Shown piece by piece: positions 1,935-30,069 of a DNA stretch of 33,965 nt. The position numbers and the translations under genes were made by a program. A model generated the notes under the pieces. It did no database searches and was not told where the DNA came from. It worked only from the letters and a program-made list of their open reading frames with translations. Numbering within the stretch: position 1 is the stretch's first letter; each line of letters starts with the position of its first letter. Origin of the DNA: a virus (lineage: Duplodnaviria; Heunggongvirae; Uroviricota; Caudoviricetes); the IMG/VR virus record IMGVR_UViG_2563366827_000005. One strand, written 5' to 3'.

Positions 1935-3098
1935 TCACTCATCATCTTCTGTTTCGTACTCCACATCAGAAAGCCTTACCTCAAGCTCCAAGGACGTCGT
2001 GAAGCCGCTATTATTGAGACAATGTGTCACCTTAGTGATGGTCCAGTCCTGCTCGTCTATGACGCGCTTAAAGCCTGACACTTTAACCGGTGTTTCCGTG
2101 TAAATATCTGCCCGACCAGTAGCCAGGCTGATGGAGAACTCCGCAACACCCCGTTGCAGTTTATCCCACTTCGCCTGAGCGGCGCGCATGGCCTGTGCTT
2201 TCGTGGCATATACCGTGGTCAGGGCAAAAACGTTGTCAGCCTCACCGGCCATGTATTCACCTTCGCGCGCTTCCGGTACTTTTGGCTCTTTCTTCTGCGT
2301 GACCGGTTTCGCTTTCGGGTGCTCCAGTGCGCGCAGGTGTTTCTCTTTCTTTTTGCGTTTCAGTTTTACCTTCTGCTTTTGCGGCTTCGGGTCTTTGGTG
2401 TGTAACCACTTTGCCGTAACGCCGGTATAGGCTCCACGGTCAGCAATCGCAAAATGATGACGGTCGCCGTCGCTGCGGGTGATGGTGACCTGCGGGATTT
2501 TTTTACCGCTGGCCGTCACCCCCTGCCCCGCTTTGAGAAACAACAGTTTTCCCATTTTTACCGACACCTCACCGCCGTTGCGTTCTGCAAGACGGGTCAG
2601 GAATTTCGCATCAGACTCCTGCGACTGGTCGATGTGCGGGATTTTAATTCCGGCCAGTGACGGAGCGACACTGGCCTCCAGCTTGTTACGGGAGGCTATC
2701 GCCTCAACAATCGCACCGAGTGTGGTGTCATGCCAGGAGCCTTCCCGGCGGGAATTGAGCGTCCCGCGAAAATCTGCACTCCGGGCGCGGATGGTGACCA
2801 CATCCGGTGCGCCCCGGTGTTCAACCTCATCAACGGTAAATTTCCCTTTGCATACCAGGGCAAAACCTTTCCAGCCGATATACACCGTCAGGACAGCGCC
2901 ACGAATCGGTAGTCCGACCTGCCCGTCGGCATCGTTCAGTTCAATATCAAGCTGGTCAGCCTCAAAGCCCCGGTTATCCGTCAGGGTCATGCTCATCAGA
3001 CGGTCGCTGATATTGCCGGTAATATCCCTGCTGTCGAGCATCAACATATAATCCGGCGTCAGCGTACTGCCTGCATCAAATGTCAGCGCATCCAGCAT
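1935..3098 (-). CDS. D: Tail protein D (late control gene D homolog)
   Basis: 387 aa, same length and position as P2 gpD, last gene of the F-E-T-U-D tail operon; ATG overlaps the U stop (TAATG). Confidence 0.85.
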   Translation of the reverse strand: MLDALTFDAGSTLTPDYMLMLDSRDITGNISDRLMSMTLTDNRGFEADQLDIELNDADGQVGLPIRGAVLTVYIGWKGFALVCKGKFTVDEVEHRGAPDVVTIRARSADFRGTLNSRREGSWHDTTLGAIVEAIASRNKLEASVAPSLAGIKIPHIDQSQESDAKFLTRLAERNGGEVSVKMGKLLFLKAGQGVTASGKKIPQVTITRSDGDRHHFAIADRGAYTGVTAKWLHTKDPKPQKQKVKLKRKKKEKHLRALEHPKAKPVTQKKEPKVPEAREGEYMAGEADNVFALTTVYATKAQAMRAAQAKWDKLQRGVAEFSISLATGRADIYTETPVKVSGFKRVIDEQDWTITKVTHCLNNSGFTTSLELEVRLSDVEYETEDDE

Positions 3099-3577
3099 TA
3101 TCCCACCCCCGTCATACCCGTGAATTTAGTCGCCATACTGCCAGCCTTACCGATGAGCGACTCCGCCTGTTTACCGATATCGCCATAAAGCGCGGCCAGT
3201 GATTCATCAACGCGGGTGAGCGACAGCGTAAAATCAATTTTCCGGGGTGTGCCGTCTGCAAAGAAAATACTCCCTGTTTCACTCACCCTGCTGATGACAT
3301 ACATGCCGTAAATCATGCCGGTGCCATCCAGCAATGGCCACGCCCGACCTTCCTCTGCCATCAGCCTGAGCGTGGTCATCGTCAGCTTGCCGCCGGTCAG
3401 TTCGGGATAAAGCACACCGGCCAGCGTGATGTTTTCCTCACCCACACCGAGAAACTGAAAGGCATCCCGTTTGCCGATACGGGAATTTGACGGCCAGCGA
3501 TAATCTGATTCACGCTGCATGGTCTGGTGTGGCAGCGTCTGGCGCATAAAAACAAACATACCTAACGCGAGCATCAT
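3098..3577 (-). CDS. U: Tail protein U
   Basis: 159 aa starting MMLALGMFVF, P2 gpU length and synteny. Confidence 0.85.
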   Translation of the reverse strand: MMLALGMFVFMRQTLPHQTMQRESDYRWPSNSRIGKRDAFQFLGVGEENITLAGVLYPELTGGKLTMTTLRLMAEEGRAWPLLDGTGMIYGMYVISRVSETGSIFFADGTPRKIDFTLSLTRVDESLAALYGDIGKQAESLIGKAGSMATKFTGMTGVG

Positions 3578-3591
3578 TTTTCGTCACCTCC

Positions 3592-6039: not shown

Positions 6040-6459
6040 TCGTGTTTCCGCTTCGCCGGAGCGCCTTTTCGCGCCATGTGATGAGTTCGGTCAGGCTCAT
6101 GGGATACAGTTCTGATGGCGGCCAGTGAAATATCACTGCCACATCCGCCATCAGGTCATCGACCGAGAGATTTTTCGGAAACGTCACTGCACCGAGTTCG
6201 GCGACAAAAAACCAACCACCTTACCGGCCAGCGCCACAAGGTCAGGCAGTTCCAGCGCGGCGACTTCCTGCTCGGTCAGCATCGGTGCCGTCATGCGCGG
6301 CAGCACTTTAATCAGTGCATCGACTTCGGAGTTCGCGACTGCAGCCAGACTGACACCGCGCAGCGTCCCGGCATTGGGTTTCATCAGCGTGACCTGTTCG
6401 ATAACCTGCTCACCACGTTTGACCGGATTGTCCAAGGTAATGACGTTTTCTTTGTTCAT
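6032..6459 (-). CDS. Tail assembly chaperone E+E' fusion produced by programmed -1 ribosomal frameshift
   Basis: Hand translation of the -1 frame from the slip site gives ...GFF-VAELGAVTFPKNLSVDDLMADVAVIFHWPPSELYPMSLTELITWREKALRRSGNTNE-stop, total 142 aa, ending at TAA 6032..6034 and overlapping the T start by 8 nt. Confidence 0.75.
6184..6459 (-). CDS. E: Tail assembly chaperone E (in-frame product)
   Basis: 91 aa ending ...KVVGFLSPNSVQ; slippery TTTTTTG lies near its 3' end; P2 gpE length. Confidence 0.85.
   Translation of the reverse strand: MNKENVITLDNPVKRGEQVIEQVTLMKPNAGTLRGVSLAAVANSEVDALIKVLPRMTAPMLTEQEVAALELPDLVALAGKVVGFLSPNSVQ
6205..6211 (-). promoter_or_regulatory. Slippery heptamer T-TTT-TTG (minus strand) for the E/E' -1 frameshift
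   Basis: caaaaaa on + strand equals TTTTTTG on the coding strand, in the GGT-TTT-TTG (G-F-L) context near the end of E. Confidence 0.75.
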
Positions 6460-6515
6460 GGTTTTCTCACTTCTGAATCGGGGTTAACCGGTCAGCCAGG
6501 CTGACCGGATGAAAA

Positions 6516-7034
6516 TCACAGGCCGATATTGCGGCGGTGTTGCTCCAGCCGGTCGACGCCGTTCACCTTCTCAATCATGTTGATGGTGTCGATTTCGACC
6601 AGCTCCTTACCGTCCATCGTCAGCCGGAAATAGGTGCAGACCACGGAGATTTTCGACTCGGTGTCTTCTCCCTGTTTGCCCTCGCCGGTGTCGATTTCTT
6701 TCTGACGTCCACGCATGACCACCTCGACGGCCACCGTTTCGCCGGTATCGTCGCGCTGGTAAGAGCCTGCAAAACGAATCGGTACGGCATCCACACCGGT
6801 TGCGGCGTAAAGCTCCCAGATAACCGAATCCGGGAAACCACCGAGCGACCACTCCATTGACAGCGCATCGTCATCAAGGCCGAGGTCTACCGGTGCGCTG
6901 CCGTTCATCCCCGCACCGCGATAGTTTTCGAGCTTACGGGTCAGTTTTGGCAGCGTGACGGACTTTGCAACGCCCTGATAGCTGTAGCCGTTCAGAAAGA
7001 CGTTCATTAACTTGAGTTTGCGCGGCATTGCCAT
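6516..7034 (-). CDS. FII: Tail tube protein FII
   Basis: 172 aa, P2 gpFII length and synteny. Confidence 0.85.
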   Translation of the reverse strand: MAMPRKLKLMNVFLNGYSYQGVAKSVTLPKLTRKLENYRGAGMNGSAPVDLGLDDDALSMEWSLGGFPDSVIWELYAATGVDAVPIRFAGSYQRDDTGETVAVEVVMRGRQKEIDTGEGKQGEDTESKISVVCTYFRLTMDGKELVEIDTINMIEKVNGVDRLEQHRRNIGL

Positions 7035-7046
7035 CGGTCAGGCTCC

Positions 7047-8237
7047 TTAATTGCTATTAACCGAAGTGACCAGACTTGCCAGGTATCTGGAAGTAATACG
7101 CTGGCGCAGGGTCAGGTTTTCGAGAGGAGGCACCGGGGTATAGTCGTAGTCGATATACAGTTTTCCGGCCTTGAGGGTTTCCGCATCGTTGGATTCTTCG
7201 CTGAACCAGCAGGTCGCATCCACGATATAGCCGTTTGTTTTCAGCTCACGGAATTTGGCATTGATGCCGTCAACGATGTCGCGAATCAGCGTTGCGGTGA
7301 TGGGCTTGTCCACCGCCCACATGTGCGCCTCAGCCATCGTATCGGCCAGCACCTGCGCGGTGCGGGTGTAGTTTTCAAAGAGGAACAGCGGGTCATCAGA
7401 GCAGGTACGGTTACCCCAGAAGCGTAAACCGTCACGGCGAATCAGCGTTGTGACCCCTGACTCGTTCAACAGGTCAGCATCGGTGCCGGACTCCTGCAAA
7501 TCCCAGAATACAGATGCGCTGATGCCGGTAACACCGTTCACCCCGACATTGGACAGAGTTTTATGCCAGCCCTGCTCCTGGTCGATTTTAGCGCGCAGGC
7601 CCAGTGCACGGGCAGTGGCATACGCGGTGGCGGTGGTACTGGTGACCGTATCCCATGCGAGGAAATCCGGCCAGATGACCATCAGCTCACGCTGGCTGAA
7701 ATTCTGGCGGTAGGCTTTCACCTCGGAAATAGTCTTACATCCCCATGCGCTGATATACCCGAAAGCACGCAGCTTCTGACAGACAGATGCCAGTGCAACA
7801 GCCACCTCTTTGGTATCCAGTCCCGGCACGCCGAGAATACGCGGTTTAACACCGGTTACCGACTCCGCCGCCAGCAGGGCTTTCAGTCCGGTGTACTGAC
7901 CGTTTTCGTCGGTGGTGCCGATGATATTGGAAACGGTCTGCGCGAGTTTCGTTTCTTCGTCGTCGCCGGTGCCGTCTTCCACACGTACGACAACGGTGAC
8001 CGGTTTTGACTGGTCGGCGATGGCCTGCAACGATGCCGCCAGCGTGCCTTTTTTACCAGCCTTTGCAATTGCGCTCTGCACATTGGTAATCAGCACCGGT
8101 TTATTGAGGGGGAAGGTTTCCGCATCTGCATCGCTGGCCGTGCAGACCATGCCGACAATGGCCGTGGATACGGTGGAAATGACGCGGGTGCCGTCGTTAA
8201 TCTCCAGCACCTGCACGCCGTGATGATAGTCACTCAT
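7047..8237 (-). CDS. FI: Contractile tail sheath protein FI
   Basis: 396 aa, P2 gpFI length and synteny, first gene of the F-E-T-U-D operon. Confidence 0.9.
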   Translation of the reverse strand: MSDYHHGVQVLEINDGTRVISTVSTAIVGMVCTASDADAETFPLNKPVLITNVQSAIAKAGKKGTLAASLQAIADQSKPVTVVVRVEDGTGDDEETKLAQTVSNIIGTTDENGQYTGLKALLAAESVTGVKPRILGVPGLDTKEVAVALASVCQKLRAFGYISAWGCKTISEVKAYRQNFSQRELMVIWPDFLAWDTVTSTTATAYATARALGLRAKIDQEQGWHKTLSNVGVNGVTGISASVFWDLQESGTDADLLNESGVTTLIRRDGLRFWGNRTCSDDPLFLFENYTRTAQVLADTMAEAHMWAVDKPITATLIRDIVDGINAKFRELKTNGYIVDATCWFSEESNDAETLKAGKLYIDYDYTPVPPLENLTLRQRITSRYLASLVTSVNSN

Positions 8238-8680
8238 CCGTTTAACTCCGTGGTTAATGGGTGCAACTATTTTCTGTTGTGCAGAGCATGAGACGCTATT
8301 TGACCTGGCTGGTCAGGGGATGAAACAACAGATAAAGAAAATGCGGGCAATTCGCCCGCCTGTCCTGATTTGTACACACTCATTTTCCGACTGACTATTT
8401 AGATAGCCGAAACGCTATCAAATCTGACAGTCTGCTTTGAGCGAGGAGCAAAGGTTAGACCAGACTTATCTTTAGGGATGTTTTCTACCCTCATGTTGAC
8501 GTTATTTTTAAGCGATAAATCTATTGTTATGGAGCTGATTATATTTTCAGACACTAATTTGGATTACTTCATATTAATCTGGCCGATATATGAAAGGATC
8601 TATTACAGCCAGATTTAGGATAAGTTTATGCTCTTCCTATATAATTTTAAGTATCAGCTTTAGATTCTGCTGCACCCGCA

Positions 8681-9166
8681 TTACCAACCTCGCTCTTTAA
8701 GCCTTTGCTGCACATGTGATGCTGTCATTTTTAGAATATCAGGTAGAATAATTTCATTACCTTGAGAAGGTTGAAACGAGGCATTACGATTGGCAAAGAG
8801 GTCATGAAACCTAGTGTCTGATGTAATCATGACGGGAAGATTGTTATATCCCCGGTCGTTGAACTGATCTGCAGTCAAATCAACAATCATTCCATCCACG
8901 ACAAGCCAAGCATGTGAATTACCGTTTGAAAGACCGCTGGCGGGGGACTTATGATCAGATTCATAGTAATATCCTGCGAGTACTTCAGAGACTATCCCGA
9001 ATTGCTGATAAAGCAAATAAGCAAGCAGTTTCGATGTATCCCCGCAGCATCCCACTGGAAAGTTCGAATTTCTAAAGGATGACAGCCGTGAATGATCTTT
9101 TTTGGTCATCTTCTCAAGTGCTTCACGCACATCAACACAAAAAATTTTTAACTCATCTTGATTCAT
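8681..9166 (-). CDS. Cargo gene 2: small protein with transglutaminase-like (papain-fold) Cys-His-Asp signature; function unknown, candidate effector
   Basis: 161 aa; motifs VGCCGDTSKLLAYLL (Cys40/41 at a helix start), NSHAWLVVDG (His85) and IVDLTAD (Asp) match the TGL-superfamily pattern GxCxx[FY]A ... HAWxEV ... D[PA]T; AT-rich; ATG with AAGGT Shine-Dalgarno. Confidence 0.45.
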   Translation of the reverse strand: MNQDELKIFCVDVREALEKMTKKDHSRLSSFRNSNFPVGCCGDTSKLLAYLLYQQFGIVSEVLAGYYYESDHKSPASGLSNGNSHAWLVVDGMIVDLTADQFNDRGYNNLPVMITSDTRFHDLFANRNASFQPSQGNEIILPDILKMTASHVQQRLKERGW

Positions 9167-9252
9167 CTAGTTACCTTTTATTGTCTACACAACCATAGAA
9201 TTAAATTTAATTGGCCCGTAATGCACTATCATTTAACTACTAAATAGAAAAG

Positions 9253-10038
9253 TCAAATAGGATTAAAACGTAGCGCAAATTCTCCATATTTTTTTTCAGC
9301 CCGATGAAACTTCACATGGCTTAGACCATTTTCACTACATATATTTTTGATTTTTGCAATATCCTGTTCCAGCGTTTTCAAACCAAAAAAAACATCAGTT
9401 ATTGCCTCTGGCTTAATCTTATAGGCTCCAATATTACTTTTATAAACTCTAATCTCCTCTTCATAATTCCAATCCATTGATTTCGTAGAGAGTGTGTCGA
9501 GTATTGATTTTTTAGGGTCTCTAAGATAATTTAATGGAATATATTGCTTCATATATACTATGTTTTGGGGGGTTATAAAGAACTCTGGATCCTTAGCAAT
9601 ATTGAGTTTTATAGCAACTCCGGTATGGTTCTCCGCATAATGAGACCATAAAAGAACATTTTCATTAGTTTTAGATAGCGATAAAATGCCATGGGCATTG
9701 ACGGCATTTGTTTTTATATTTTTAACTAGATCATTAAATGCTTGGCTGTTTTCTTTATACACATCTATTAAGTTCTGCTTTGCCTTCTTGGTTAATCCAT
9801 TCTGATATGAATATAACCAACAAGTAAAGTCTGATAAAGAGTATTCTTTTTCCTCATCCAGCATACAATCAAATGGATCATTAAAATTTTCCGCTGATGA
9901 AAAGTAAAATTCTTTTTTTTGAAGAATATCACAGGCTTTATCTATAGTTCTGAACTTGTAAACTGATTCTGGGTAGGTGCCTTCATTTATTCCTTTAAGG
10001 ATTAAATCTTTTTTATCCAACCATCTTATTCCTGACAT
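9253..10038 (-). CDS. Cargo gene 1: DUF2971-family protein; function unknown
   Basis: 261 aa from the ATG at 10038, preceded by a strong SD (AAGGAGG, about 7-nt spacer); the ORF-track start at 10059 is a TTG. Motifs VYKFR...FYFSSAENFNDPFD and LSLSKTNENVLLWSHYAENHTGVAI match what I recall as DUF2971 hallmarks. AT-rich. Confidence 0.5.
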   Translation of the reverse strand: MSGIRWLDKKDLILKGINEGTYPESVYKFRTIDKACDILQKKEFYFSSAENFNDPFDCMLDEEKEYSLSDFTCWLYSYQNGLTKKAKQNLIDVYKENSQAFNDLVKNIKTNAVNAHGILSLSKTNENVLLWSHYAENHTGVAIKLNIAKDPEFFITPQNIVYMKQYIPLNYLRDPKKSILDTLSTKSMDWNYEEEIRVYKSNIGAYKIKPEAITDVFFGLKTLEQDIAKIKNICSENGLSHVKFHRAEKKYGEFALRFNPI

Positions 10039-10368
10039 TTGATTCCTCCTTATTATCAATAACTTTCATTGGTCTTTTCGCACCACAATTTTAGACTAAA
10101 CACAATGCAAATCAACATGATTGTAGTGTCGGTGATTGTCTTACTGGTCACCAGATACTATACCGCTAAGATCAGATTAAAGGGAATGATTCTTTATTAT
10201 GTAGCAAACTTTAGAGGCCGGGAGTAATCGTGGGTAGCTCTGTTACACTGTTATAATGGGTTAGCATAGCCCATGTGATCAACGCCCGCTTTTGGCACAG
10301 AGCGGACTGTCAGATTAGGCTTTACTCTGTGCCATAGATATGTAAGCTCACACCAGAGTTCATACAAC

Positions 10369-10896
10369 TTATTGCGGCATTTCCGGCCATTCAGGATTTG
10401 CAGGATCCACACGACTGACCAGAACGCTGTAGCGTTCCCAAGCCTCCAGCCGTGTGCGCTCCTCCTCTGTTGCCATGTTCAGTCTGACCGCGCGCTCCAG
10501 CGGCAAAATCACGGATTCAGCATCTGCAAGAAGTCTGGCTTTCCGAATTTCTGCCTGCTGCTGTAATTCCTCTGCCGTATAAATGCGTTTAATCACTTTG
10601 CCGTCCTTAAACATCCAGCCCCCTGAAATATCCGCCCGTCGGTTAGCAGTAATATCCGCCACTTCAACCACACTTAATCCATCCGGTCTGATAGCTGTCA
10701 CATCCTTTTCCACATAGCGGATGATATTATCTTTGTCGTACGCTATTTTTATCGTGTCATCAGCAAAATACTTTTGTTCTTCGTACCAGTTCTTACCATC
10801 TTCTGTAAAAAACCAGACAACATCAAAGCCCTTTGTCAATTGATATTGTTCAACCGTTTTTGGATTACCCGCCGTAATATTTTTTAAATGCTGCAT
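10369..10896 (-). CDS. G: Tail fiber assembly protein G
   Basis: 175 aa, P2 gpG length and position directly downstream of H; N-terminal half is AT-rich. Confidence 0.85.
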
Positions 10897-21590: not shown

Positions 21591-21763
21591 TGTCAGGAGT
21601 CCTGAATAGTGATTAGAGGAGTCACATGTCGGCATCAGTTTCCCGACGATGCGCATCCTCCGCCATCAGTCCCGGATGGCTTATCACTGACACAACAGCA
21701 CCTTAGCGAATCGCGGGACGCGACTCAGTAGCCTTGCCGTGTATTCATCACGGCGAGGTATTC
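21591..21763. promoter_or_regulatory. Divergent late promoter region between O (leftward) and P-Q (rightward); Ogr-dependent by analogy with P2
   Basis: Position between divergently transcribed late operons; exact -10/-35 and activator sites not resolved by eye. Confidence 0.45.
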
Positions 21764-23536
21764 ATGACCATCACCACAGACACCACTCTTTTACACGACC
21801 CGCGTCGTCAGGCGGCGCTGCTGTACTGGCAGGGGTTTTCCGTGCCGCAGATTGCCGCCATGTTGCAGATGAAACGCCCGACGGTGCAGAGCTGGAAACA
21901 GCGCGACGGCTGGGACAGCGTTGCCCCCATCAGCCGTGTCGAAATGAGTCTGGAAGCGCGGCTGACCCAGCTCATCATCAAACCGCAGAAAACCGGCGGT
22001 GACTTCAAGGAAATTGACCTGCTGGGACGCCAGATTGAACGACTGGCACGGGTCAACCGCTACAGCCAGACCGGCAACGAGGCAGACCTTAATCCGAACG
22101 TCGCTAACCGCAACAAAGGCGGGCGGCGCAAACCGAAAAAGAATTTTTTCAGTGACGAGGCCATCGAAAAGCTGGAGCAGATTTTCTTTGAGCAGTCTTT
22201 CGACTATCAGTTGCACTGGTATCGTGCCGGGCTTGAGCACCGCATCCGCGATATCCTGAAATCCCGCCAGATTGGCGCAACGTTTTATTTTTCCCGCGAG
22301 GCGCTGCTGCGCGCCCTGAAAACCGGCCATAACCAGATTTTTCTGTCGGCCAGTAAAACGCAGGCGTATGTGTTCCGTGAATACATCATCGCCTTTGCCC
22401 GGCTGGTTGACGTTGACCTGACCGGTGACCCGATTGTCCTGGGCAATAACGGCGCAAAACTGATTTTTCTCGGCACCAACTCCAACACCGCACAGAGCCA
22501 TAACGGCGACCTGTACGTCGACGAGATTTTCTGGATCCCGAATTTTCAGGTACTGCGTAAGGTGGCATCAGGTATGGCCTCACAGAGTCACCTGCGCTCG
22601 ACCTATTTCTCCACCCCGTCCACGCTGGCGCACGACGCCTACCCGTTCTGGTCGGGTGAACTGTTCAACCGGGGACGCGCCAGCGCCGCCGAACGCGTGG
22701 AAATCGACGTCAGTCATAACGCCCTTGCCGGTGGGCTTCTCTGTGCGGACGGCCAGTGGCGGCAGATTGTCACCATTGAGGACGCCCTGAAAGGCGGCTG
22801 CACGCTGTTCGACATTGAGCAGCTCAAACGCGAAAACAGCGCCGACGATTTTAAAAACCTGTTCATGTGTGAATTTGTTGACGACAAGGCATCGGTGTTC
22901 CCGTTCGAGGAGCTGCAACGCTGCATGGTCGACACGCTGGAAGAATGGGAAGACTATGCGCCGTTTGCCGCGAATCCGTTCGGCTCCCGCCCGGTATGGA
23001 TTGGTTACGACCCGTCACACCGTGGCGACAGCGCCGGATGCGTGGTACTGGCACCGCCGGTGGTGGCCGGTGGCAAATTCAGGATCCTTGAGCGTCACCA
23101 GTGGAAAGGCATGGACTTTGCCACTCAGGCGGAATCCATCCGCAAACTCACCGAAAAATACAACGTCGAATACATCGGAATTGATGCCACCGGCCTCGGT
23201 GTCGGCGTGTTCCAGCTCGTTCGCTCGTTCTATCCCGCCGCGCGCGATATCCGCTACACGCCGGAAATGAAAACCGCAATGGTGCTCAAGGCAAAAGACG
23301 TTATCCGTCGTGGCTGTCTGGAATATGACGTCAGCGCCACCGACATCACCAGCTCGTTTATGGCTATCCGCAAGACCATGACCAGCAGCGGACGCAGCGC
23401 CACCTATGAGGCCAGCCGCAGCGAGGAAGCCAGCCACGCCGACCTCGCCTGGGCGACCATGCACGCCCTGTTAAATGAGCCACTCACCGCCGGTATCAGC
23501 ACCCCGCTGACATCCACCATTCTGGAGTTTTACTGA
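21764..23536 (+). CDS. P: Terminase large subunit (ATPase/endonuclease) P
   Basis: 590 aa from ATG 21764 (MTITTDTT...) with GAGGT SD; the ORF-track start at 21734 is a TTG; P2 gpP length. Confidence 0.9.
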   Translation: MTITTDTTLLHDPRRQAALLYWQGFSVPQIAAMLQMKRPTVQSWKQRDGWDSVAPISRVEMSLEARLTQLIIKPQKTGGDFKEIDLLGRQIERLARVNRYSQTGNEADLNPNVANRNKGGRRKPKKNFFSDEAIEKLEQIFFEQSFDYQLHWYRAGLEHRIRDILKSRQIGATFYFSREALLRALKTGHNQIFLSASKTQAYVFREYIIAFARLVDVDLTGDPIVLGNNGAKLIFLGTNSNTAQSHNGDLYVDEIFWIPNFQVLRKVASGMASQSHLRSTYFSTPSTLAHDAYPFWSGELFNRGRASAAERVEIDVSHNALAGGLLCADGQWRQIVTIEDALKGGCTLFDIEQLKRENSADDFKNLFMCEFVDDKASVFPFEELQRCMVDTLEEWEDYAPFAANPFGSRPVWIGYDPSHRGDSAGCVVLAPPVVAGGKFRILERHQWKGMDFATQAESIRKLTEKYNVEYIGIDATGLGVGVFQLVRSFYPAARDIRYTPEMKTAMVLKAKDVIRRGCLEYDVSATDITSSFMAIRKTMTSSGRSATYEASRSEEASHADLAWATMHALLNEPLTAGISTPLTSTILEFY

Positions 23537-24570
23537 TGAGCAAGAAAGAAGGGAAAACACCGCAGCCAGCGGCAAAAACAATCACCGCCAGCGCCCCGAA
23601 AATGGAAGCATTCACCTTTGGCGAGCCGGTGCCGGTACTCGACCGCCGTGACATTCTGGATTACGTCGAATGCATCAGTAACGGCAGATGGTATGAGCCG
23701 CCGGTCAGCTTTACCGGTCTGGCAAAAAGCCTGCGTGCTGCCGTGCATCACAGCTCACCGATTTACGTCAAACGCAATATTCTGGCCTCAACATTTATCC
23801 CGCATCCGTGGCTTTCGCAACAGGATTTCAGCCGCTTTGTGCTGGATTTTCTGGTGTTCGGTAATGCGTTTCTGGAAAAGCGTTACAGCACCACCGGTAA
23901 GGTCATCAGACTGGAAACCTCACCGGCAAAATATACCCGCCGTGGTGTGGAAGAGGATGTTTACTGGTGGGTGCCGTCCTTCAACGAGCCGACACCTTTC
24001 ACGCCCGGTTCCGTGTTTCACCTGCTGGAGCCGGATATTAATCAGGAGCTGTACGGCCTGCCGGAATACCTCAGCGCCCTTAACTCTGCCTGGCTGAATG
24101 AGTCGGCCACGCTGTTCCGCCGCAAGTATTACGAAAACGGCGCACATGCCGGATACATCATGTACATCACCGATGCCGTGCAGGATCGCAACGATATCGA
24201 AATGCTTCGCGAAAACATGGTGAAGTCGAAAGGCCGCAACAACTTTAAAAATCTGTTTCTCTATGCCCCACAAGGGAAAGCCGACGGCATTAAAATTATC
24301 CCGCTCAGTGAAGTGGCGACGAAGGACGATTTTTTTAATATCAAAAAAGCCAGTGCCGCAGACCTGCTGGACGCGCACCGCATCCCCTTTCAGTTGATGG
24401 GCGGCAAGCCGGAGAACGTCGGGTCGCTGGGTGATATTGAGAAAGTGGCAAAGGTCTTTGTCCGCAATGAGCTTATCCCGTTACAGGACAGGATCCGAGA
24501 GATAAACGGCTGGCTCGGTCAGGAGGTCATCCGCTTTAAAAACTACTCACTGGACACTGACAACGACTGA
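23536..24570 (+). CDS. Q: Portal protein Q
   Basis: 344 aa, P2 gpQ length; start overlaps the P stop (TGATG). Confidence 0.9.
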   Translation: MSKKEGKTPQPAAKTITASAPKMEAFTFGEPVPVLDRRDILDYVECISNGRWYEPPVSFTGLAKSLRAAVHHSSPIYVKRNILASTFIPHPWLSQQDFSRFVLDFLVFGNAFLEKRYSTTGKVIRLETSPAKYTRRGVEEDVYWWVPSFNEPTPFTPGSVFHLLEPDINQELYGLPEYLSALNSAWLNESATLFRRKYYENGAHAGYIMYITDAVQDRNDIEMLRENMVKSKGRNNFKNLFLYAPQGKADGIKIIPLSEVATKDDFFNIKKASAADLLDAHRIPFQLMGGKPENVGSLGDIEKVAKVFVRNELIPLQDRIREINGWLGQEVIRFKNYSLDTDND

Positions 24571-24596: not shown

Positions 24597-24739
24597 TACA
24601 TCCCGTCATCACGCCCTCACACGCTCACCACCGCACAAAACACCCCTTAGACACACCAACGCCCCGACGCACAATCTAAACGCCATCACGACGCGCTCAG
24701 ACGCTGAAAAAATAAAATCAGCACCACCGCCAGCGCGCA

Positions 24740-24758
24740 GTGCTTTCCCCGCCTCGCC
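24740..24758. other. cos site (19-nt cohesive end)
   Basis: gtgctttccccgcctcgcc is the reverse complement of GGCGAGGCGGGGAAAGCAC, which I recall as the P2 cohesive-end sequence; located between Q and the right-end cargo as in P2. Confidence 0.7.
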
Positions 24759-25073
24759 CGCCCGCTTCATGGGGCGGTTTTAATGCAGTTGCATGATGAA
24801 ACTGAAATCACATCAGCACTGACCGAAACTGACAAAAAGAATAGTATCTGACACATGCAAAAACACGCACTTAATATACGCCTATCTATAGCTCCTACAG
24901 GATTGTCAAAAAACGACCAACTCGTCATAGCGTAAACACATTTGGCTCAACGAACACTTACGTTATATGCCTCTTGCACATATCAAAGTCTTAAGGTAGA
25001 TCTTTACCACTAAGTGGCTATATTAAGCTGCTTTTTTACATACAATAAAAGCTTTATCGTATGAGGCATAAAA

Positions 25074-27290
25074 ATGGAACTTAGATTAAAAAATGTTACC
25101 AGTTATAAGAAAGACGCCTTCACAATACTGAATCTTGAAAAAAGAGTAAACATACTATACGGCCAAAATGGTTGTGGCAAATCTACCATTTCAAATTATT
25201 TCTACGACTCTACACACACAGATTATAACGAGTGTGAATGTACCCTTCTTGACAATTACAAACCTCTTGTTTACAACACTAAATTTATTGAAGATAATTT
25301 CTACAATGCACAGGAACAAAAAGGTGTTTTTACATTAAGTAAAGAAAATGCAGATATTGAAAAACAATTAATTGAAAAAGAAGCAATTAAACAGCAACTT
25401 ACAGAGCAATATAGACAAAAAAAAGGAGTGTTATTGAAATTAGAAGCAGAAATGGAAAAAAAAGAAAATGAATACATCGAATCGATCTGGAAAAAAACAG
25501 AACCAATCAGAAACTCTGTACTAAAAACCTTAATGAAAGGTAAAGTTGGCTATAAAAGACCTTTTTTTGAGATGATAAAATCATCCTCACCAATCACCTT
25601 TATTAATTTAAATGATATAGCAAAAGAATACTCTATACTATTAGAAAATAGAAACAATGAAACCGCATTAATAACTCCTTTACATCCATATACCCCATCA
25701 ATTGATGATGTAAATACATTAGCAACACCTATAATAGATACAAGCAATAGCTATTTATCAGAAACCATTAATAAACTTCATAATCTTGACTGGGTAAAAA
25801 AAGGTAAAGAACATTATTTAGACGGTTCTACATGTCCGTTTTGTCAGGAAAAAACTATTAGTCACGAATTTTTAAATGCCCTTAAATCAATATTTGACGA
25901 AAGTTATTCAAAGAAAGTAAAACAGCTCTCAGATATAAAGTCAGTTTATGAGAAAAATACCATATATCATTTTAACGAAATACAAAACAATATATCATCA
26001 TGTGCACTAATCAATGAGAAAGATAAAGAGATCATTATTTCCAATATTAAAATATTGCAAAACATTGCAGAAAAAAATTTAATAAACATTATTGATAAGA
26101 TCAACAATCCATCAACATGCGTTACATTAGAAATTGATAAAGAACTAGAAAATCATGTTCAGGAAAGCATAGACGCTGTTAACAAAAAAATAAGAGACAT
26201 AAATGATAAGGTTAAAAAACTCAAAGAGTATGAGAATAAAATCGGAAAACAAGTTTGGGGGGCTCTCCATGCTTTTTGCAGCGATGATTTAGAGAATTTA
26301 TCCAAACACAAAGAAAAATTCTTTGATATCAAAAAGAAAGTTCATGATGAATTAAATAATATTGAGCAACAAGGAAAAGAAAATAATCTCACAATAAAAG
26401 CATTGCGAGATAAAATATCTAACATTGATTCTACGATAGACTCAATAAACACCCATTTAAAAAATCTAGGGATCTCTGGTTTTTGTATTGAAAAACATGC
26501 AGAAAGAAAAGATATGTACATTATATCTCGACCAGGGCATACAAAAAACCAAAATGTTTATAGATCTCTTAGCGAAGGTGAAAAAACACTAATAACGTTT
26601 CTTTATTTTTTAGAGTGCTGTAAAGGTAAAACCGATAAAAATGATACCGATAGCAGGGATATTTTTATTGTTATTGACGATCCAATATCTAGTCTATCGC
26701 AAAACTATGTCTACGACATCGCATCAATTATTCATCACCACATTATAAAAAATGAATCAACAAAGAAGGTATTAATCCTTACTCACAATCTTTATTTCTT
26801 TCATGAACTTATTAAGCTATCTCCTAAAAGCAGAGAAGACAAACTATTTAAGAAAAACTATTATCTAGGTAGAGTAACGAAAAATGATTTTAGTATAATT
26901 ACTGAAATACAAAAAAACAGCATACAGAATGAATATCAATCTTTGTGGCAAATATTAAAAGATGCAAAAGATGGCAAAGCAAACAAAATCATAATACCTA
27001 ATATTATGAGAAACATACTAGAATATTATTTTGCATTTGTTCATAGAACAGATGCTCTACAAGATGAATTAACAAAGTTGGCACGCGACGATAGCAACAG
27101 TGATTTCAAAGCATTCTACAGATACATTAACAGAGGTTCTCACTCTGATGCGGTAAATATTACTGATATGGGCGACATAGACCCAGATAAATACCTAAAA
27201 CAATTGAGAACAATATTTTCAGCTACTGGTGACGAAATGCATTATTTAAAAATGATGGACGAACTAGAAGAGGAGAACGTTACCGCTTAG
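25074..27290 (+). CDS. Cargo gene: ABC/Rad50-like ATPase with long coiled-coil insert (CxxC) and C-terminal PrrC/RloC-like putative anticodon-nuclease domain; candidate single-gene anti-phage protein
   Basis: 738 aa; Walker A GQNGCGKST (aa 30-38), about 460-aa Lys/Glu-rich insert with CPFC (aa 254-257), ABC signature LSEGEK (aa 499-504), Walker B IFIVIDD (530-536), D-loop SSLS, H-loop LILTHN, C-terminal RNILE (646-650) and RYINRGSH (683-690); no Toprim motifs; strongly AT-rich; occupies the tin/old position. Confidence 0.55.
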   Translation: MELRLKNVTSYKKDAFTILNLEKRVNILYGQNGCGKSTISNYFYDSTHTDYNECECTLLDNYKPLVYNTKFIEDNFYNAQEQKGVFTLSKENADIEKQLIEKEAIKQQLTEQYRQKKGVLLKLEAEMEKKENEYIESIWKKTEPIRNSVLKTLMKGKVGYKRPFFEMIKSSSPITFINLNDIAKEYSILLENRNNETALITPLHPYTPSIDDVNTLATPIIDTSNSYLSETINKLHNLDWVKKGKEHYLDGSTCPFCQEKTISHEFLNALKSIFDESYSKKVKQLSDIKSVYEKNTIYHFNEIQNNISSCALINEKDKEIIISNIKILQNIAEKNLINIIDKINNPSTCVTLEIDKELENHVQESIDAVNKKIRDINDKVKKLKEYENKIGKQVWGALHAFCSDDLENLSKHKEKFFDIKKKVHDELNNIEQQGKENNLTIKALRDKISNIDSTIDSINTHLKNLGISGFCIEKHAERKDMYIISRPGHTKNQNVYRSLSEGEKTLITFLYFLECCKGKTDKNDTDSRDIFIVIDDPISSLSQNYVYDIASIIHHHIIKNESTKKVLILTHNLYFFHELIKLSPKSREDKLFKKNYYLGRVTKNDFSIITEIQKNSIQNEYQSLWQILKDAKDGKANKIIIPNIMRNILEYYFAFVHRTDALQDELTKLARDDSNSDFKAFYRYINRGSHSDAVNITDMGDIDPDKYLKQLRTIFSATGDEMHYLKMMDELEEENVTA

Positions 27291-27318
27291 GCCGCATATT
27301 ATCGTTTTGGGTAAGAAC

Positions 27319-27338
27319 GACGGTGCTTACGCACCGTC
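27319..27338. terminator. Hairpin gacggtgc-ttac-gcaccgtc between the convergent cargo gene and A; candidate terminator
   Basis: Perfect 8-bp stem with 4-nt loop in the convergent intergenic region; flanking U-tracts are weak. Confidence 0.3.
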
Positions 27339-27539
27339 TCCCAACGCCCAAAGCGGTAGCGGTTGTACTGGCGTACATTCACTAGCTTTAACATGAGGCA
27401 ATCTCCATGCCAGCACTATTGTTGCCAATAGCAGCCTTTATACCCTTTGTACAAAGCTAATACCAAGAGTAATGCAAAGTAGATGTCCCAAGCGGTAACG
27501 GGGCTATTCTATGTCAAACACAGAAAAAATCAAAGCACC

Positions 27540-29804
27540 CTATGAATCCCCCCAACCATCAGCGACCGGATACGTGAATTTTTTCCCGTCATAATTTACG
27601 GTCGCTCCACGCGCCAGCGCCTCAAGCTCCCATCGCTGCGGCCTGATACCGTTCTGAGCAAGGTCAACGCGGATACGGGTGATTTGCAATCGTTCAGACC
27701 TGGTCAGTCTGGCAGATGGTGCAATTTCATGCGGTTTTAACGGGCTTCCGTTTCTTTGCTGACGGTTTGGCGTTCTCAGGTCGTATTTTAATGCGCCCCT
27801 GAGCGCCCTCACGACCTCCGGTTCATTCCATTCAATAACACCGTCATCAACCAGATTAAGCACTGCTGCGGCGTGCTCAGAAGGTGTGGGAGCCGGTAAC
27901 GAAGTATCACCACCGGTGAGCTTTCCACAGTTATTGACAGGACTCCGAGGCGCGGCGATGCCGCTTTTTAAAGTCAAAGGCTCAACGACCGGAACTTTCG
28001 GAACAATGCGCCAGTCCGTCGTTCTGGTGATATGAATATGACGCGCGCCGAGATGCGGCGCGTAAATGCCGACCACTCTCTCGACTTCTTCCTCGTACTC
28101 GTTAACTTCATCCGACGGACTACGGGCAACCCTGACAGTCTGACAATCGCGCGGAACATTTGCCCCACCCTGCGCGCTGATATACAACGCAAAATCACCA
28201 CTGTCTGCGGCGGCGCGTGCAGCCTCGACGCGTTCGTCAAACTCATCAGCAATGCTGACGCCGCGAGGCAATTTGCGTAGTTCACGGTAAGCGCCCATTG
28301 TCGGCAGGCCAACCGTTTTAAATTGCGGGATACGCCACGTTGACGCCCATGCGGTAACAGCCGCTGCAGTGTCTTTCAGCGGCCTGCCGGTATCGTTATC
28401 GAGCTGACCATCCAGTGCATAGCCGTCGATATTTTTTGAGATGTATTTTGCGATATATCCCGCAGCACCGCCCCGGTTAAGGTGTTTTGCCTGAAAACGG
28501 TTTCGCGCGGCTCCTCTTTCGTTACCATCCTCTTTGAGCGCATAGCGACGCATGATTTCGATAATCTGGTTACGCTGGCGTGGATTACAAAAAAGCATCA
28601 TATGCCAGTGCGGCGTTCCGTCGTGGTGTGGCTCGACGACACGCAAACCGTAGACCTGTAAATCATTATCCTTGAATGCCGTGCGCATCAGGCTCCAGAT
28701 ACGGCAGAGATAACGCTGCGCATCCTTCGGATTAAATGCCTCATCGTTCCAGCCGTGATTAAGCTGGACGGTTTTACTTTCTCCTTTTCCGACCTGACGT
28801 GTCGGGTGATACTTTGACGGCGTGGTCAGCGTGATAAACATCCCCACATCACCCTCTGCGGCGGCGTAACGCTCAATACCGGCAATGGTGTTCATCAGCT
28901 CCATCCGGCGAATTTCAGGATTAGAAATACTGCCCATCACCTTACTGATAAGGTCGATGCGCTCGCCGGTTTCCCTGTTTTCAAGGTCACATGATTTAAG
29001 AAACTCCAGATTTGCCTGGCGGCGCGCACGCACATCACGAATGGCATGTTTACTGGCATAAGGAGAACGGTCTTTATTGACCTCCCCGACAGCAATCAGT
29101 AACGCCTCATGCCAGCGCATGCGCTGGCCTTTAAGCTGATGAGTCCACCACTCATCGTTAAACAGACGGGCAATGGCAGAATATGCCTGCCTCGTGGTCA
29201 TCTGTCCTTTACGGTATTTTTTCCAGTAGAGAGGGGAAATATTGAAAGCTCGTGCAGCGCCAGCAACATGACCATACAGGTGATCCTGAGCCTCATCCGT
29301 AAACAGTGATTCTTTTTCGCCATGCGCATCCACCCAGGCATCGCTGAGTTCCTCATACATCATGAAAAGCTGCGATGAGATACGGGCGGCAAACTTTTTC
29401 AGCTCCTTGTCATTCATTCCCGGCAGGCGCGCATAGTGGTCACGCTCTGCCAGAAACAGCAACGACGCGTCGGTGTTCATTTCATGGCGCTGATTCACAC
29501 GCTCAATGCGCGGCCATAAACGACGCTGAAAAGTGGATGTGAGGAAATAAAACCCGTGTACCGGGCTTTTATTGCGCCTGATGTAGTCATAGCGTGAAGT
29601 AAACAGCGAGCGCAAAAAGTAAGGCAGGCGGTTAATCGTGGATAAAACACCTTGCACCTGACACATCTCATCACGTGTAAGAGGTCTTTCGCGCCCGACA
29701 GCCTCGCGTGGCGCGTTCCATGCATAAGCACCGGTAAACATCTTACCGGTGCCTGCGGCAAATGCTGACGGAGGGACAAAACGCCCGGAGGCTTTAACGG
29801 CCAT
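27540..29804 (-). CDS. A: Replication initiation protein A (rolling-circle nickase)
   Basis: P2 gpA homolog by length and position; ATG at 29804 (MAVKASGRF...) chosen; the ORF-track start at 29846 is a TTG and an in-frame GTG at about 29825 would give 761 aa, so the exact start is uncertain. Confidence 0.85.
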   Translation of the reverse strand: MAVKASGRFVPPSAFAAGTGKMFTGAYAWNAPREAVGRERPLTRDEMCQVQGVLSTINRLPYFLRSLFTSRYDYIRRNKSPVHGFYFLTSTFQRRLWPRIERVNQRHEMNTDASLLFLAERDHYARLPGMNDKELKKFAARISSQLFMMYEELSDAWVDAHGEKESLFTDEAQDHLYGHVAGAARAFNISPLYWKKYRKGQMTTRQAYSAIARLFNDEWWTHQLKGQRMRWHEALLIAVGEVNKDRSPYASKHAIRDVRARRQANLEFLKSCDLENRETGERIDLISKVMGSISNPEIRRMELMNTIAGIERYAAAEGDVGMFITLTTPSKYHPTRQVGKGESKTVQLNHGWNDEAFNPKDAQRYLCRIWSLMRTAFKDNDLQVYGLRVVEPHHDGTPHWHMMLFCNPRQRNQIIEIMRRYALKEDGNERGAARNRFQAKHLNRGGAAGYIAKYISKNIDGYALDGQLDNDTGRPLKDTAAAVTAWASTWRIPQFKTVGLPTMGAYRELRKLPRGVSIADEFDERVEAARAAADSGDFALYISAQGGANVPRDCQTVRVARSPSDEVNEYEEEVERVVGIYAPHLGARHIHITRTTDWRIVPKVPVVEPLTLKSGIAAPRSPVNNCGKLTGGDTSLPAPTPSEHAAAVLNLVDDGVIEWNEPEVVRALRGALKYDLRTPNRQQRNGSPLKPHEIAPSARLTRSERLQITRIRVDLAQNGIRPQRWELEALARGATVNYDGKKFTYPVADGWGDS

Positions 29805-30069
29805 ATGAGCCAAAAGCCTCTGAACAACGCCTGCTGAGTTGCTCAACCTGCGCGTTTAAATCAGCAAAAGACTTTGCGCTTCCGGTCAGAATATCGTGAT
29901 GCATCAGGCCGGAAACGAGCTGGCTTAATTTCGGGTAATAACCAACCACCGCCAGCCATTCCTGACCGGCGTTTTTACCGCTTTCCGCTCTCTTTTTCTC
30001 GTGGAGAATAAACTGAAAGCTGTCACTGGTAACGACATAACGTTCGCCAATTTCAATACGAATACTCAT
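29794..30069 (-). CDS. Hypothetical protein (P2 orf83-like) upstream of A
   Basis: 91-aa ORF with ATG start in the B-A interval of the early operon. Confidence 0.55.
   Translation of the reverse strand: MSIRIEIGERYVVTSDSFQFILHEKKRAESGKNAGQEWLAVVGYYPKLSQLVSGLMHHDILTGSAKSFADLNAQVEQLSRRCSEAFGSYGR

Follow-up and report, generated by a model that had tools for sequence, protein, structure and literature searches.

What does a P2-like prophage carry in the gap between its portal gene and its replication gene A, and what would that cargo do for a lysogen? The window analysed here is a 33,965-nucleotide stretch of a Caudoviricetes virus (IMG/VR record IMGVR_UViG_2563366827_000005). Its terminase (21734..23536) and portal (gene Q, 23536..24570) genes lie upstream of an open reading frame (ORF) of 738 aa at 25074..27290 on the plus strand, which converges with a 768-aa gpA-like ORF on the minus strand (27540..29846). 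The gene occupies the cos-proximal tin/old position of a P2-like prophage, a hotspot between gpA and gpQ that was defined in PMC9122126 and is a known holder of anti-phage systems. It forms an AT-rich island, with GC of 0.27-0.31 over 25000-27250 vs 0.52-0.60 in the flanks (roughly 0.29 vs 0.53-0.58), and a GC3 of 0.248 vs 0.54-0.72. The original prediction, made from the letters of this DNA, had described a single AT-rich gene convergent with A at the tin/old hotspot, and the ORF, base composition, neighbouring genes and limits of P2-like homology all agree with it. Its element, 24597-27539, corresponds to the whole Q-to-A gap, whereas the variable cargo proper, delimited where homology to other P2-like phages stops and resumes, starts at about 24,795-24,875 and ends at about 27,548. 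The locus is composed of the following features.

24795..25073, plus strand: left junction and 5' leader/promoter region (P2-like homology ends at 24794-24875; sequence reading)
25074..27290, plus strand: predicted RloC-family gene with ABC-ATPase, coiled-coil zinc-hook and HEPN parts (ORF; AAA_13; PDC-S06; phrog_2801; APEC O1 identity)
27291..27548, no strand assigned: cargo 3' tail to the right junction (P2-like homology resumes at 27549-27557)
27319..27338, no strand assigned: GC-rich hairpin GACGGTGC-ttac-GCACCGTC in the intergenic gap where the RloC-like gene converges with A (direct sequence reading)

The ORF begins with ATG, about 8 nt downstream of a GAGG ribosome-binding site at about 25062-25065, and ends with TAG at 27288-27290. 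A promoter scan gave one sigma-70-like match at 24848-24877, and promoter-like sites in the region as a whole were not above chance (15 found vs 12.0 ± 4.1 expected). The scan found more terminator-like sites than expected (7 vs 2.1 ± 1.5), none of them directly after the stop codon of the 738-aa gene. The hairpin at 27319-27338 was missed by the terminator scan and has no T-run on either strand; it may be a transcription stop. The right junction falls slightly past the gene A stop at 27540, and the 3' tail holds just 20-33-aa ORFs. A search of the island for a partner gene returned only ORFs of 20-53 aa besides the 738-aa gene, and the ORF survey identified no Mre11/SbcD/LmuA-type nuclease partner there.

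Within the protein, four segments and one motif were delimited.

25074..25349, plus strand: N-terminal ABC head half, aa 1-92 (Walker A at 25161-25187, with K36)
25350..26471, plus strand: helical insert, aa 93-466 (AF2 secondary structure; heptad test; Foldseek matches to Rad50/SMC/LmuB including coiled coils)
25833..25844, plus strand: zinc-hook-type motif C254-P-F-C257 (conservation in homologs; RloC alignment context)
26472..26915, plus strand: C-terminal ABC head half, aa 467-614 (signature, Walker B/D-loop and H-loop, with E503, D535, D536 and H571)
26916..27287, plus strand: predicted HEPN-type anticodon-nuclease domain, aa about 615-738 (R646, E650, R683, S689-H690)

The head motifs lie exactly where the original prediction of a split, Rad50-like ABC ATPase had placed them. 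The Walker A motif reads G30-QNGCGKS-T38 and includes K36; the ABC signature reads L499-SEGE-K504 (L499-SEGE-503 at 26568-26582), Walker B reads I530-FIVIDD-536 (Walker B/D-loop 531-536 at 26664-26681), and the H-loop reads T570-H571-N572 (T570-H571 at 26781-26786). By sequence, the head matches the Pfam families AAA_13, SMC_N and AAA_23. The whole-protein structural model (pLDDT 84) matches Rad50 (E 8e-7), SMC heads and LmuB in Foldseek, and the modelled head and stalk resemble those of Rad50/SMC proteins.

Between the head halves, a coiled coil of about 460 aa had been proposed. The insert is indeed mostly helical (77% in the AF2 model) and contains the invariant CxxC, but it spans only about 374 aa (93-466). 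In the proposed coiled-coil check, only two helices near the head, 356-401 and 403-446, showed significant heptad periodicity (reached by 0 and 1 of 2000 shuffles, respectively), and aa 93-141 were borderline (p about 0.055). Since the heptad signal is limited to these head-proximal stretches, an unbroken coiled coil along the whole insert was rejected; as modelled, the insert is a head-proximal antiparallel coiled-coil stalk (~93-141 and 356-446) with a helical apical region. The loop with C254-P-F-C257 precedes the insert midpoint by 24 residues.

In the C-terminal domain, the predicted R-x3-E and R-x6-H motifs were found as claimed, R646-NIL-E650 and R683-YINRGS-H690, encoded at 27009-27011 (R646), 27021-27023 (E650), 27120-27122 (R683) and 27138-27143 (S689-H690). 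The resulting spacing, R646-x3-E650-x39-S689-H690, fits the published RloC/PrrC triad pattern Arg-X3-Glu-X36-52-His, in which a Ser often precedes the His (PMC2610378). The PADLOC PrrC model aligns with aa 490-730 (profile 133-352 of 372, E 2e-13), and HEPN RNases rank first and dominate among the structural matches of the C-terminal domain, whose model has the HEPN fold of Anantharaman et al. 2013. A Foldseek search of this domain against viral structures (BFVD) gave no significant match (best E 0.6). The PrrC/RloC/HEPN-like character claimed for the C-terminus is thus upheld by the PrrC match and the HEPN model, although the domain covers about 125 aa and not 170.

Conservation was assessed in two sets of relatives. 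In 56 homologs, down to about 20% identity, K36, C254, C257, E503, D535, D536, H571 and R646 are invariant (56/56), H690 is kept in 55, and F256, S689 and E650 each in 54, the other two residues at E650 being Asp. A second set of 143 independent full-length representatives retains C-x-[FYL]-C in every member, the triad in 142, Ser-His in 139 and the ABC head motifs in 140-143. At the level of sequence, a chance origin of the motifs is ruled out because they are conserved across distant homologs. The family is also large, with 3,846 representative clusters at E <= 1e-30 in which the motifs are conserved.

Profile searches assign the protein to a family end to end. Pfam AAA_13 matches aa 17-716 (profile 11-713 of 713, E 3.9e-111), and the PADLOC PDC-S06 sub-model PDLC04886 matches aa 2-730 (profile 4-724 of 727, E 6.9e-255). 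PHROGs places the protein in phrog_2801, listed as of unknown function, and RefSeq and other sources name the gene only "AAA family ATPase"; an NCBIfam profile search gave no meaningful match and no model for the gene. Homologs at 28-32% identity carry the source name 'wobble nucleotide-excising tRNase', and distant relatives of 750-800 aa mostly match PDC-S06 sub-models with a secondary PrrC match. PDC-S06 appears to be PADLOC's name for an RloC-like AAA_13 clade and not a separate system. Neither Toprim nor Old was matched in Pfam (E <= 1) or PADLOC, in agreement with the original exclusion of an Old homolog, and PADLOC matches to LmuB were weak (E 1e-10). Searching the PDB with the single protein gave no match, and the 56-sequence profile retrieved only weak matches to segments of AriA, coiled coils and Rad50/SMC heads, so no PrrC/RloC structure was reachable by sequence. 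A further profile search for characterised RloC yielded relatives of about 750-830 aa, all of them unnamed. One of the sequences considered, P0166 (804 aa), was rejected as GkaRloC; it is without C291, R692, E696 and H737.

The gene is not new: RloC-family listings already contain it, and the copy here is intact. It is 99.6% identical to WP_000423308 of E. coli APEC O1, a single 738-aa copy between portal and replication-endonuclease genes. The 2008 paper that defined RloC lists, as entry 51 of its Table S1, E. coli APEC O1 YP_852004, a protein of 738 aa with capsid and phage replication initiation genes as neighbours (PMC2610378). Published RloC proteins range from 658 to 897 aa and are solitary, with R-M linkage rare; the window gene encodes 738 aa, and no R-M gene is found at its locus or at loci L001-L006. 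The window protein also shares the C-x-F-C context of the RloC orthologue alignment (PMC2610378 Fig. S1), which spans the coiled-coil/hook region only and was used for this context alone. Rousset et al. 2022 list WP_000423308 at the P2 hotspot, where a related AAA_13 allele, annotated 'RloC-like', ranks fifth with 420 occurrences (PMC9122126); their Table S5A pairs WP_000423308 with a "hypothetical" protein, WP_077461969. Judged by its motifs, its profile matches and the orthologue-table listing of the APEC O1 copy, the 738-aa protein is a predicted member of the RloC family. The original reading was right but overlooked this existing record in PMC2610378 Table S1 and the 2022 hotspot survey.

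Several observations count against an RloC reading. A 2013 HEPN survey places a prophage-associated ABC-HEPN group, with prototype APECO1_4465 from APEC O1, beside the RloC-like family and not within it; this prototype (gi 117623091) is likely the same protein as YP_852004/WP_000423308, as both are prophage-borne ABC-HEPN proteins of the same strain. At R683, the canonical HEPN Arg, 9/56 homologs have another residue (Ser in 7), and the heptad signal is confined to a portion of the insert. According to a 2025 preprint, an E. coli PDC-S06 ATPase is not called by DefenseFinder, and the window gene is not among the P2-hotspot systems that Rousset et al. cloned.

Nonetheless, we consider it probable, by analogy with characterised RloC, that the gene is single-gene defence cargo encoding a DNA-end/ATP-gated anticodon nuclease (ACNase) that acts by abortive infection. 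The proposed mechanism is transferred from Geobacillus and Acinetobacter RloC. In a resting lysogen, an ATPase/zinc-hook switch would keep the nuclease off; because this off-switch would lie in the same polypeptide, the gene could travel without an antitoxin or R-M partner. Upon infection by another phage, DNA ends or breaks would engage the head and stimulate ATP hydrolysis, which would turn on the HEPN domain to cut tRNA anticodon loops. Cutting of the RloC type, on both sides of the wobble base, would excise this base, and repair by a phage tRNA ligase could not simply reverse it. Translation would stop, and the infected cell would arrest or die before progeny release; such abortive infection would spare sister lysogens and therefore protect the prophage.

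Published work supports individual steps of this scheme. Mutation of the RloC triad abolishes ACNase activity and toxicity, and mutation of the zinc hook activates the ACNase (PMC2610378). A DNA-dependent ATPase activates the RloC ACNase (PMC3458546); wobble excision and DNA-dependent ATPase activity were demonstrated only for the G. kaustophilus and A. baylyi proteins. The antiviral role of RloC has been argued from PrrC homology and DNA-break activation, and the authors of the 2013 HEPN survey suggested a role for prophage-encoded ABC-HEPN proteins in blocking infection by other phages. The literature search retrieved no published experiment on the window protein or on any prophage-borne member.

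A stress-response or prophage-maintenance (addiction) toxin, whose tRNase fires on host DNA damage with no anti-phage role, is unlikely. In its favour, the sole in vivo trigger demonstrated for RloC is chemical DNA breakage, with partial and temporary tRNA loss (PMC3874168), and the literature searched yielded no plaque-assay evidence of RloC protection or other direct demonstration of any RloC lowering phage plating. The P2 hotspot also bears non-defence cargo, including partition systems and cytolethal distending toxin (PMC9122126). However, no antitoxin is linked to the gene and most characterised cargos of the hotspot are anti-phage. Old, which P2 carries at this position, is a reported abortive ABC-ATPase tRNase (bioRxiv 10.64898/2026.07.10.737580), and the anti-phage role proposed in the 2013 survey likewise argues against a purely host-directed toxin.

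Control in the style of PrrC, where a host type I R-M enzyme silences the nuclease in trans until a phage anti-restriction protein frees it, is rather improbable. PrrC is the closest characterised relative of RloC and is controlled in this way, the PADLOC PrrC alignment over aa 490-730 would fit, and the discoverers of RloC raised R-M interaction in trans, noting that APEC O1 'encodes type I EcoK like' (PMC2610378 Table S1). Against this stand the coiled-coil/hook insert, absent from PrrC, and the lack of R-M genes adjoining the gene here or in the homolog contexts examined, which comprise a P2 hotspot, an integrase islet and a P2 remnant in decay, each with a solitary homolog. Moreover, DNA-break inducers activated RloC in a natural host deficient in R-M (PMC3874168), and a host-hopping phage gene cannot rely on a particular host R-M enzyme.

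We regard as very improbable a DNA-directed, Lamassu-like SMC/Rad50 defence in which the C-terminal domain is regulatory or DNA-binding and the target is phage DNA instead of tRNA. The top structural matches of the whole model (Rad50, SMC and LmuB) and the weak LmuB matches in PADLOC would be expected from it, whereas the island encodes no Mre11/SbcD/LmuA-type partner, the C-terminal model resembles HEPN RNases, and the near-invariant Arg/Glu/Ser-His pattern is that of the mutationally proven RloC/PrrC site. Least probable of all is that the gene is a passenger in decay that no longer functions: many database family members are fragments, ISEc12 splits the gene at about codon 635 in type strain ATCC 11775 and four E. 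coli genomes annotate it as two CDS, but the window copy is unbroken and retains all catalytic motifs, the gene is likewise intact in most of the 44 E. coli genomes carrying it at >=99% identity, a 65% allele is kept in a Klebsiella prophage remnant otherwise stripped of nearly everything, and the family comprises 3,846 clusters with conserved motifs.

The main value of assigning the gene to RloC is correct annotation, as an RloC-type gene in place of "AAA family ATPase". Lysogens with such a P2-like prophage would gain a candidate translation-disabling abortive-infection gene. An E. coli-native, prophage-borne allele is also convenient for testing RloC phage defence and the tRNAs cut, and it suits asking how a phage that itself generates DNA ends tolerates a suicide nuclease activated by them. 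More speculatively, the prophage-borne clade (PDLC04886) could be a functionally distinct RloC branch, an idea we hold tentatively and think doubtful as it stands: tuned to incoming phages through their DNA ends or replication intermediates, cutting a tRNA set of its own, and perhaps spared firing on the prophage's cos-cut DNA. If so, it would offer the first direct proof of phage protection by an RloC-type protein and, together with the report on Old, would suggest that the P2 hotspot repeatedly swaps ABC-ATPase-gated tRNases of unrelated folds, TOPRIM vs HEPN.

Among known systems, the characterised RloC proteins of G. kaustophilus and A. baylyi (Davidov & Kaufmann 2008; Klaiman et al. 2012, 2014) have their domains in the same order and carry the same motifs: a split ABC head enclosing a helical insert with central C-x-F-C, and a C-terminal triad. 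The solitary gene without an R-M partner is a further shared feature. The window protein is shorter than GkaRloC (738 vs 804 aa), its N-terminal insert arm is broken into short helices with heptads confined to the head-proximal part, and its gene rides a phage hotspot and not a chromosomal or R-M-associated site. PDC-S06, matched end to end through PDLC04886 and by distant relatives through sister sub-models, is a computational candidate label only.

PrrC shares the ABC ATPase N-domain, the C-terminal HEPN-type ACNase with its Arg/Glu/His triad, and a suicidal, translation-disabling defence like the role proposed here. It differs in its size of about 400 aa with an uninterrupted ABC domain free of a coiled-coil/hook insert, in its constant location within a silencing type Ic R-M (hsd) locus, in nicking rather than excising at the wobble position, and in its trigger, the T4 Stp peptide. 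Membership was rejected on the 738-aa length, the 374-aa insert, the partial PrrC match (E 2e-13 vs 7e-255 for PDC-S06) and the neighbours, which are phage portal and replication genes with no hsd locus. Rad50/SbcC and LmuB likewise combine an ABC head with an antiparallel coiled coil, capped in Rad50 by an apical CxxC zinc hook, but employ a separate nuclease (Mre11/SbcD/LmuA) and much longer coiled coils, with no fused HEPN RNase; the window gene, as single-gene cargo without a partner nuclease, was rejected as a member of Rad50/SbcC or Lamassu.

P2 Old is also a single-protein, ABC-ATPase-gated abortive effector in the gpA-gpQ hotspot. It has a TOPRIM nuclease fold and no coiled-coil zinc hook, and its sequence kinship to the window protein is limited to the ABC head; membership was rejected because no C-terminal TOPRIM was detected by Pfam or PADLOC. 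Since the 2026 preprint reports that Old kills via tRNA cleavage and responds to DNA substrates, Old can be viewed as a probable functional analogue of the window protein.

The window is a P2-like prophage whose tail, capsid, terminase, portal, replication (A), cox/C and integrase genes follow the order found in P2. Its start falls inside a host Peptidase_U32 gene, and its gene arrangement matches that annotated in E. coli APEC O1. As the original prediction held, a single AT-rich 738-aa gene convergent with A occupies the tin/old hotspot:

23536..24570, + strand: portal gene, left neighbour of the cargo
25074..27290, + strand: RloC-like ORF, 738 aa, the sole long ORF between portal and A
27540..29846, - strand: replication gene A, convergent with the RloC-like ORF

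A GAGG Shine-Dalgarno sequence lies ~8 nt 5' of the ATG. The GC content of the cargo island is 0.27-0.31, as compared with 0.52-0.60 in flanking DNA, and the GC3 of the gene is 0.248 as compared with 0.54-0.72. The site is the cos-proximal gpA-gpQ hotspot that carries tin and old in P2 (PMC9122126). Cassette borders were set by the loss of homology to P2-like phages with other cargos (a DUF4209 protein, a Fic/VbhT protein, or P2's own genes). Homology stops at ~24,795-24,875 and restarts at ~27,549-27,557, which makes the region a swappable one-gene cassette of ~2.7 kb. A search for a partner gene in the cargo island returned only ORFs of 20-53 aa.

Two putative minus-strand ORFs of 53 aa each (24609..24770 and 24767..24928) follow the portal gene ahead of the cargo, the second crossing the left cassette junction. 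A 'hypothetical protein' is annotated at the equivalent of 24609-24928 in some phage records, and Table S5A of Rousset et al. pairs the APEC O1 protein WP_000423308 with the 'hypothetical' WP_077461969 (PMC9122126). A GC-rich hairpin with a perfect 8-bp stem (GACGGTGC-ttac-GCACCGTC; 27319-27338) lies in the 250 bp that separate the RloC-like gene from the convergent A. It has no T-run on either strand and may block transcription in both directions or affect RNA stability.

An AlphaFold model of the window protein (56 homologs, mean pLDDT 84) shows an ABC head in two halves, aa 1-92 and 467-614, separated by an insert of 374 aa with a helix content of 77%. Each motif named in the original prediction was located at its expected residue:

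G30..K36: Walker A
C254-P-F-C257: hook motif
L499-SEGE: signature
531-IVIDD-536: Walker B
T570-H571: H-loop
R646-x3-E650: nuclease motif, first part
R683-x6-H690: nuclease motif, second part, with S689 preceding the His

Helices 356-401 and 403-446 show significant heptad periodicity; it is borderline in 93-141 and absent mid-insert, and the CxxC loop lies 24 residues off the insert midpoint. The predicted split head and hook are present, with an insert shorter than the ~460 aa first proposed and heptads in its head-proximal part. In the resulting picture, the insert would form a head-proximal antiparallel coiled-coil stalk with a helical region on top and the CxxC in its loop. In a Foldseek comparison with the PDB, the whole model matched Rad50 from the Mre11-Rad50-Nbs1 complex (E 8e-7), as well as SMC heads that include coiled coils and the Lamassu protein LmuB.

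Profile searches agree with the predicted PrrC/RloC affinity. Pfam AAA_13 aligns end to end (E 3.9e-111), the PADLOC candidate family PDC-S06 matches with E 6.9e-255, and the PADLOC PrrC model gives a weaker match at aa 490-730 only (E 2e-13). Distant relatives of 750-800 aa retain the hook, and most of them the triad as well; because they again match PDC-S06, most with a weaker secondary PrrC match, PDC-S06 appears to be the name that PADLOC gives to the RloC-like clade. Source annotations call some homologs "wobble nucleotide-excising tRNase". RloC has been defined by ABC motifs, an insert with coiled-coil/CXXC, Arg-X3-Glu-X36-52-His often with Ser preceding the His, a length of 658-897 aa, and rare R-M linkage (Davidov & Kaufmann 2008, PMC2610378). 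The window gene shares all of these features (ABC motifs, insert, triad, size and a position unlinked to R-M), and its C-x-F-C hook context also occurs in the Figure S1 alignment of that study (PMC2610378).

Across the alignment of 56 homologs, with identity down to ~20%, no variation was seen at K36, C254, C257, E503, D535, D536, H571, N643 or R646. E650 (54/56, the other two Asp), S689 (54/56), H690 (55/56) and F256 (54/56) are near-invariant. An exhaustive profile search found 3,846 representative clusters at E <= 1e-30, and motifs were scored on 143 full-length representatives, none used for motif definition. The C-x-[FYL]-C hook is present in all 143 and the Arg-x3-[Glu/Asp]-x30-60-His triad in 142; Ser-His occurs in 139 and the complete motif set in 135. 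The canonical HEPN Arg R683 (Rx4-6H; window 27120-27122) is less constant (47/56 homologs, 119/143 representatives). It is replaced by Ser in 7/56 homologs, and Rx4-6H is missing in 24/143 representatives with R646/E650/H690 retained. The loop bearing S689-H690 (aa 688-699) has a pLDDT <50 in both AF2 models, which, combined with the variable R683, would be consistent with an active site that needs dimerisation or activation for its completion. Between the window allele and diverged hotspot alleles, the head and nuclease seem to change more slowly than the insert.

The original prediction is supported in both observation and interpretation, and the window gene is a rediscovery, already filed in the literature as RloC or "RloC-like" at the same hotspot. 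From end to end it shares 99.6% identity with the one APEC O1 copy (WP_000423308, "AAA family ATPase", in a P2-like prophage between portal and replication-endonuclease genes), and RloC orthologue 51 of Table S1 is the E. coli APEC O1 entry (PMC2610378). [quoted passage not shown] APECO1_4465 and the APEC O1 copy share strain and description and are putatively the same gene. Rousset et al. (2022) list WP_000423308 at the P2 hotspot, together with a single-gene AAA_13 system at rank 5 (420 occurrences) annotated "RloC-like"; their table of cloned/tested systems includes neither of the two alleles (PMC9122126). Their 'RloC-like' representative is 46% identical to the window protein over a gapless 399 aa (the representative's first 399 aa). 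The interest left in the prophage RloC-like clade is experimental, namely its anti-phage phenotype, tRNA targets and trigger.

The window allele (at least 99% identity) occurs in 44 of 5,426 complete E. coli genomes. A 58%-identical allele (protein, overall; L002 7001-9208 against window 25074-27290) occupies the same hotspot of an E. coli P2-like prophage, giving two well-diverged alleles at an identical position. A 65%-identical allele on a Klebsiella variicola metagenome scaffold (L003 3853-9217) lies in a heavily decayed P2-like remnant otherwise reduced to ogr, a fragment of tail S and several small ORFs. Its neighbour is a Peptidase_U32 gene, the host gene in which the window starts (window 1-1362), which suggests a common integration site across genera, with the RloC-like gene kept after phage decay. 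Enterobacter phage ENT4 (PV844615.1 3158-4176; 79% identity over the last 1 kb of the gene, unannotated) was the sole gene match in a 50,697-phage collection, the remaining matches covering only the gene's flanks; the cargo is thus almost absent from sequenced virions, though well represented in prophages. In the E. coli type strain ATCC 11775 (L010; NZ_CP033092.2 1859190-1867095; locus 3001-7804), the gene is split by the IS21-family element ISEc12 at ~codon 635, shortly before catalytic R646, leaving one CDS of 645 aa for the head and stalk and another of 109 aa for the tail. Four more genomes (H50, H74, H75, H77) carry a two-CDS annotation, and these split copies are natural knockouts and possible controls.

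A second AT-rich island (window 8300-10400, GC 0.33-0.38) lies between tail-sheath and tail-fibre genes, at the site of Z/fun in P2:

9253..10059, - strand: DUF2971 protein, 268 aa, match to PADLOC candidate family PDC-S31 (E 3e-46)
8681..9166, - strand: 161-aa ORF, weak YunG match only

Both P2 variable regions of the prophage thus contain candidate defence cargo.

The architecture, conserved catalytic and hook residues, solitary gene and hotspot context were observed here, and the mechanism is taken from characterised RloCs. By this analogy, the window protein is most likely an abortive, RloC-type tRNA anticodon nuclease. In RloC, ACNase activity and toxicity are lost when the triad is mutated, mutation of the hook activates the ACNase (PMC2610378), and a DNA-dependent ATPase turns the nuclease on (PMC3458546). 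A further report describes activation in vivo by DNA-break inducers, even without R-M, and tRNA-Glu and tRNA-Gln as substrates of the Acinetobacter enzyme (PMC3874168). The prophage-borne protein would thus be silent in the lysogen until infection by another phage, when DNA ends or breaks would be sensed and ATP hydrolysed. The HEPN nuclease would then be released onto tRNA anticodon loops, where excision of the wobble base would defeat simple religation, and translation would be aborted ahead of invader maturation.

A pure stress-response or addiction role is unlikely, although plaque-assay evidence for any RloC was not found in the literature searched. We regard PrrC-style silencing of the nuclease in trans by a host R-M enzyme as quite unlikely, given the solitary, mobile context of the gene and the activation of RloC in an R-M-deficient host (PMC3874168). 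A DNA-targeting, Lamassu-like role is highly improbable, as the window locus has no partner nuclease and the RNase triad is conserved. That the gene is a decayed passenger is scarcely credible, decay being excluded for the window copy, although an IS element or frameshifts have broken the gene in other genomes.

The reading as an abortive anticodon nuclease has a counterpart in P2 itself. Old, an ABC-ATPase/TOPRIM protein, is described in a 2026 preprint as a tRNase that acts by abortive infection and responds to DNA substrates (bioRxiv 10.64898/2026.07.10.737580). Because this activity is reported for a protein of the same hotspot, Old and the RloC-like cargo look like functional analogues, although their nuclease folds differ.
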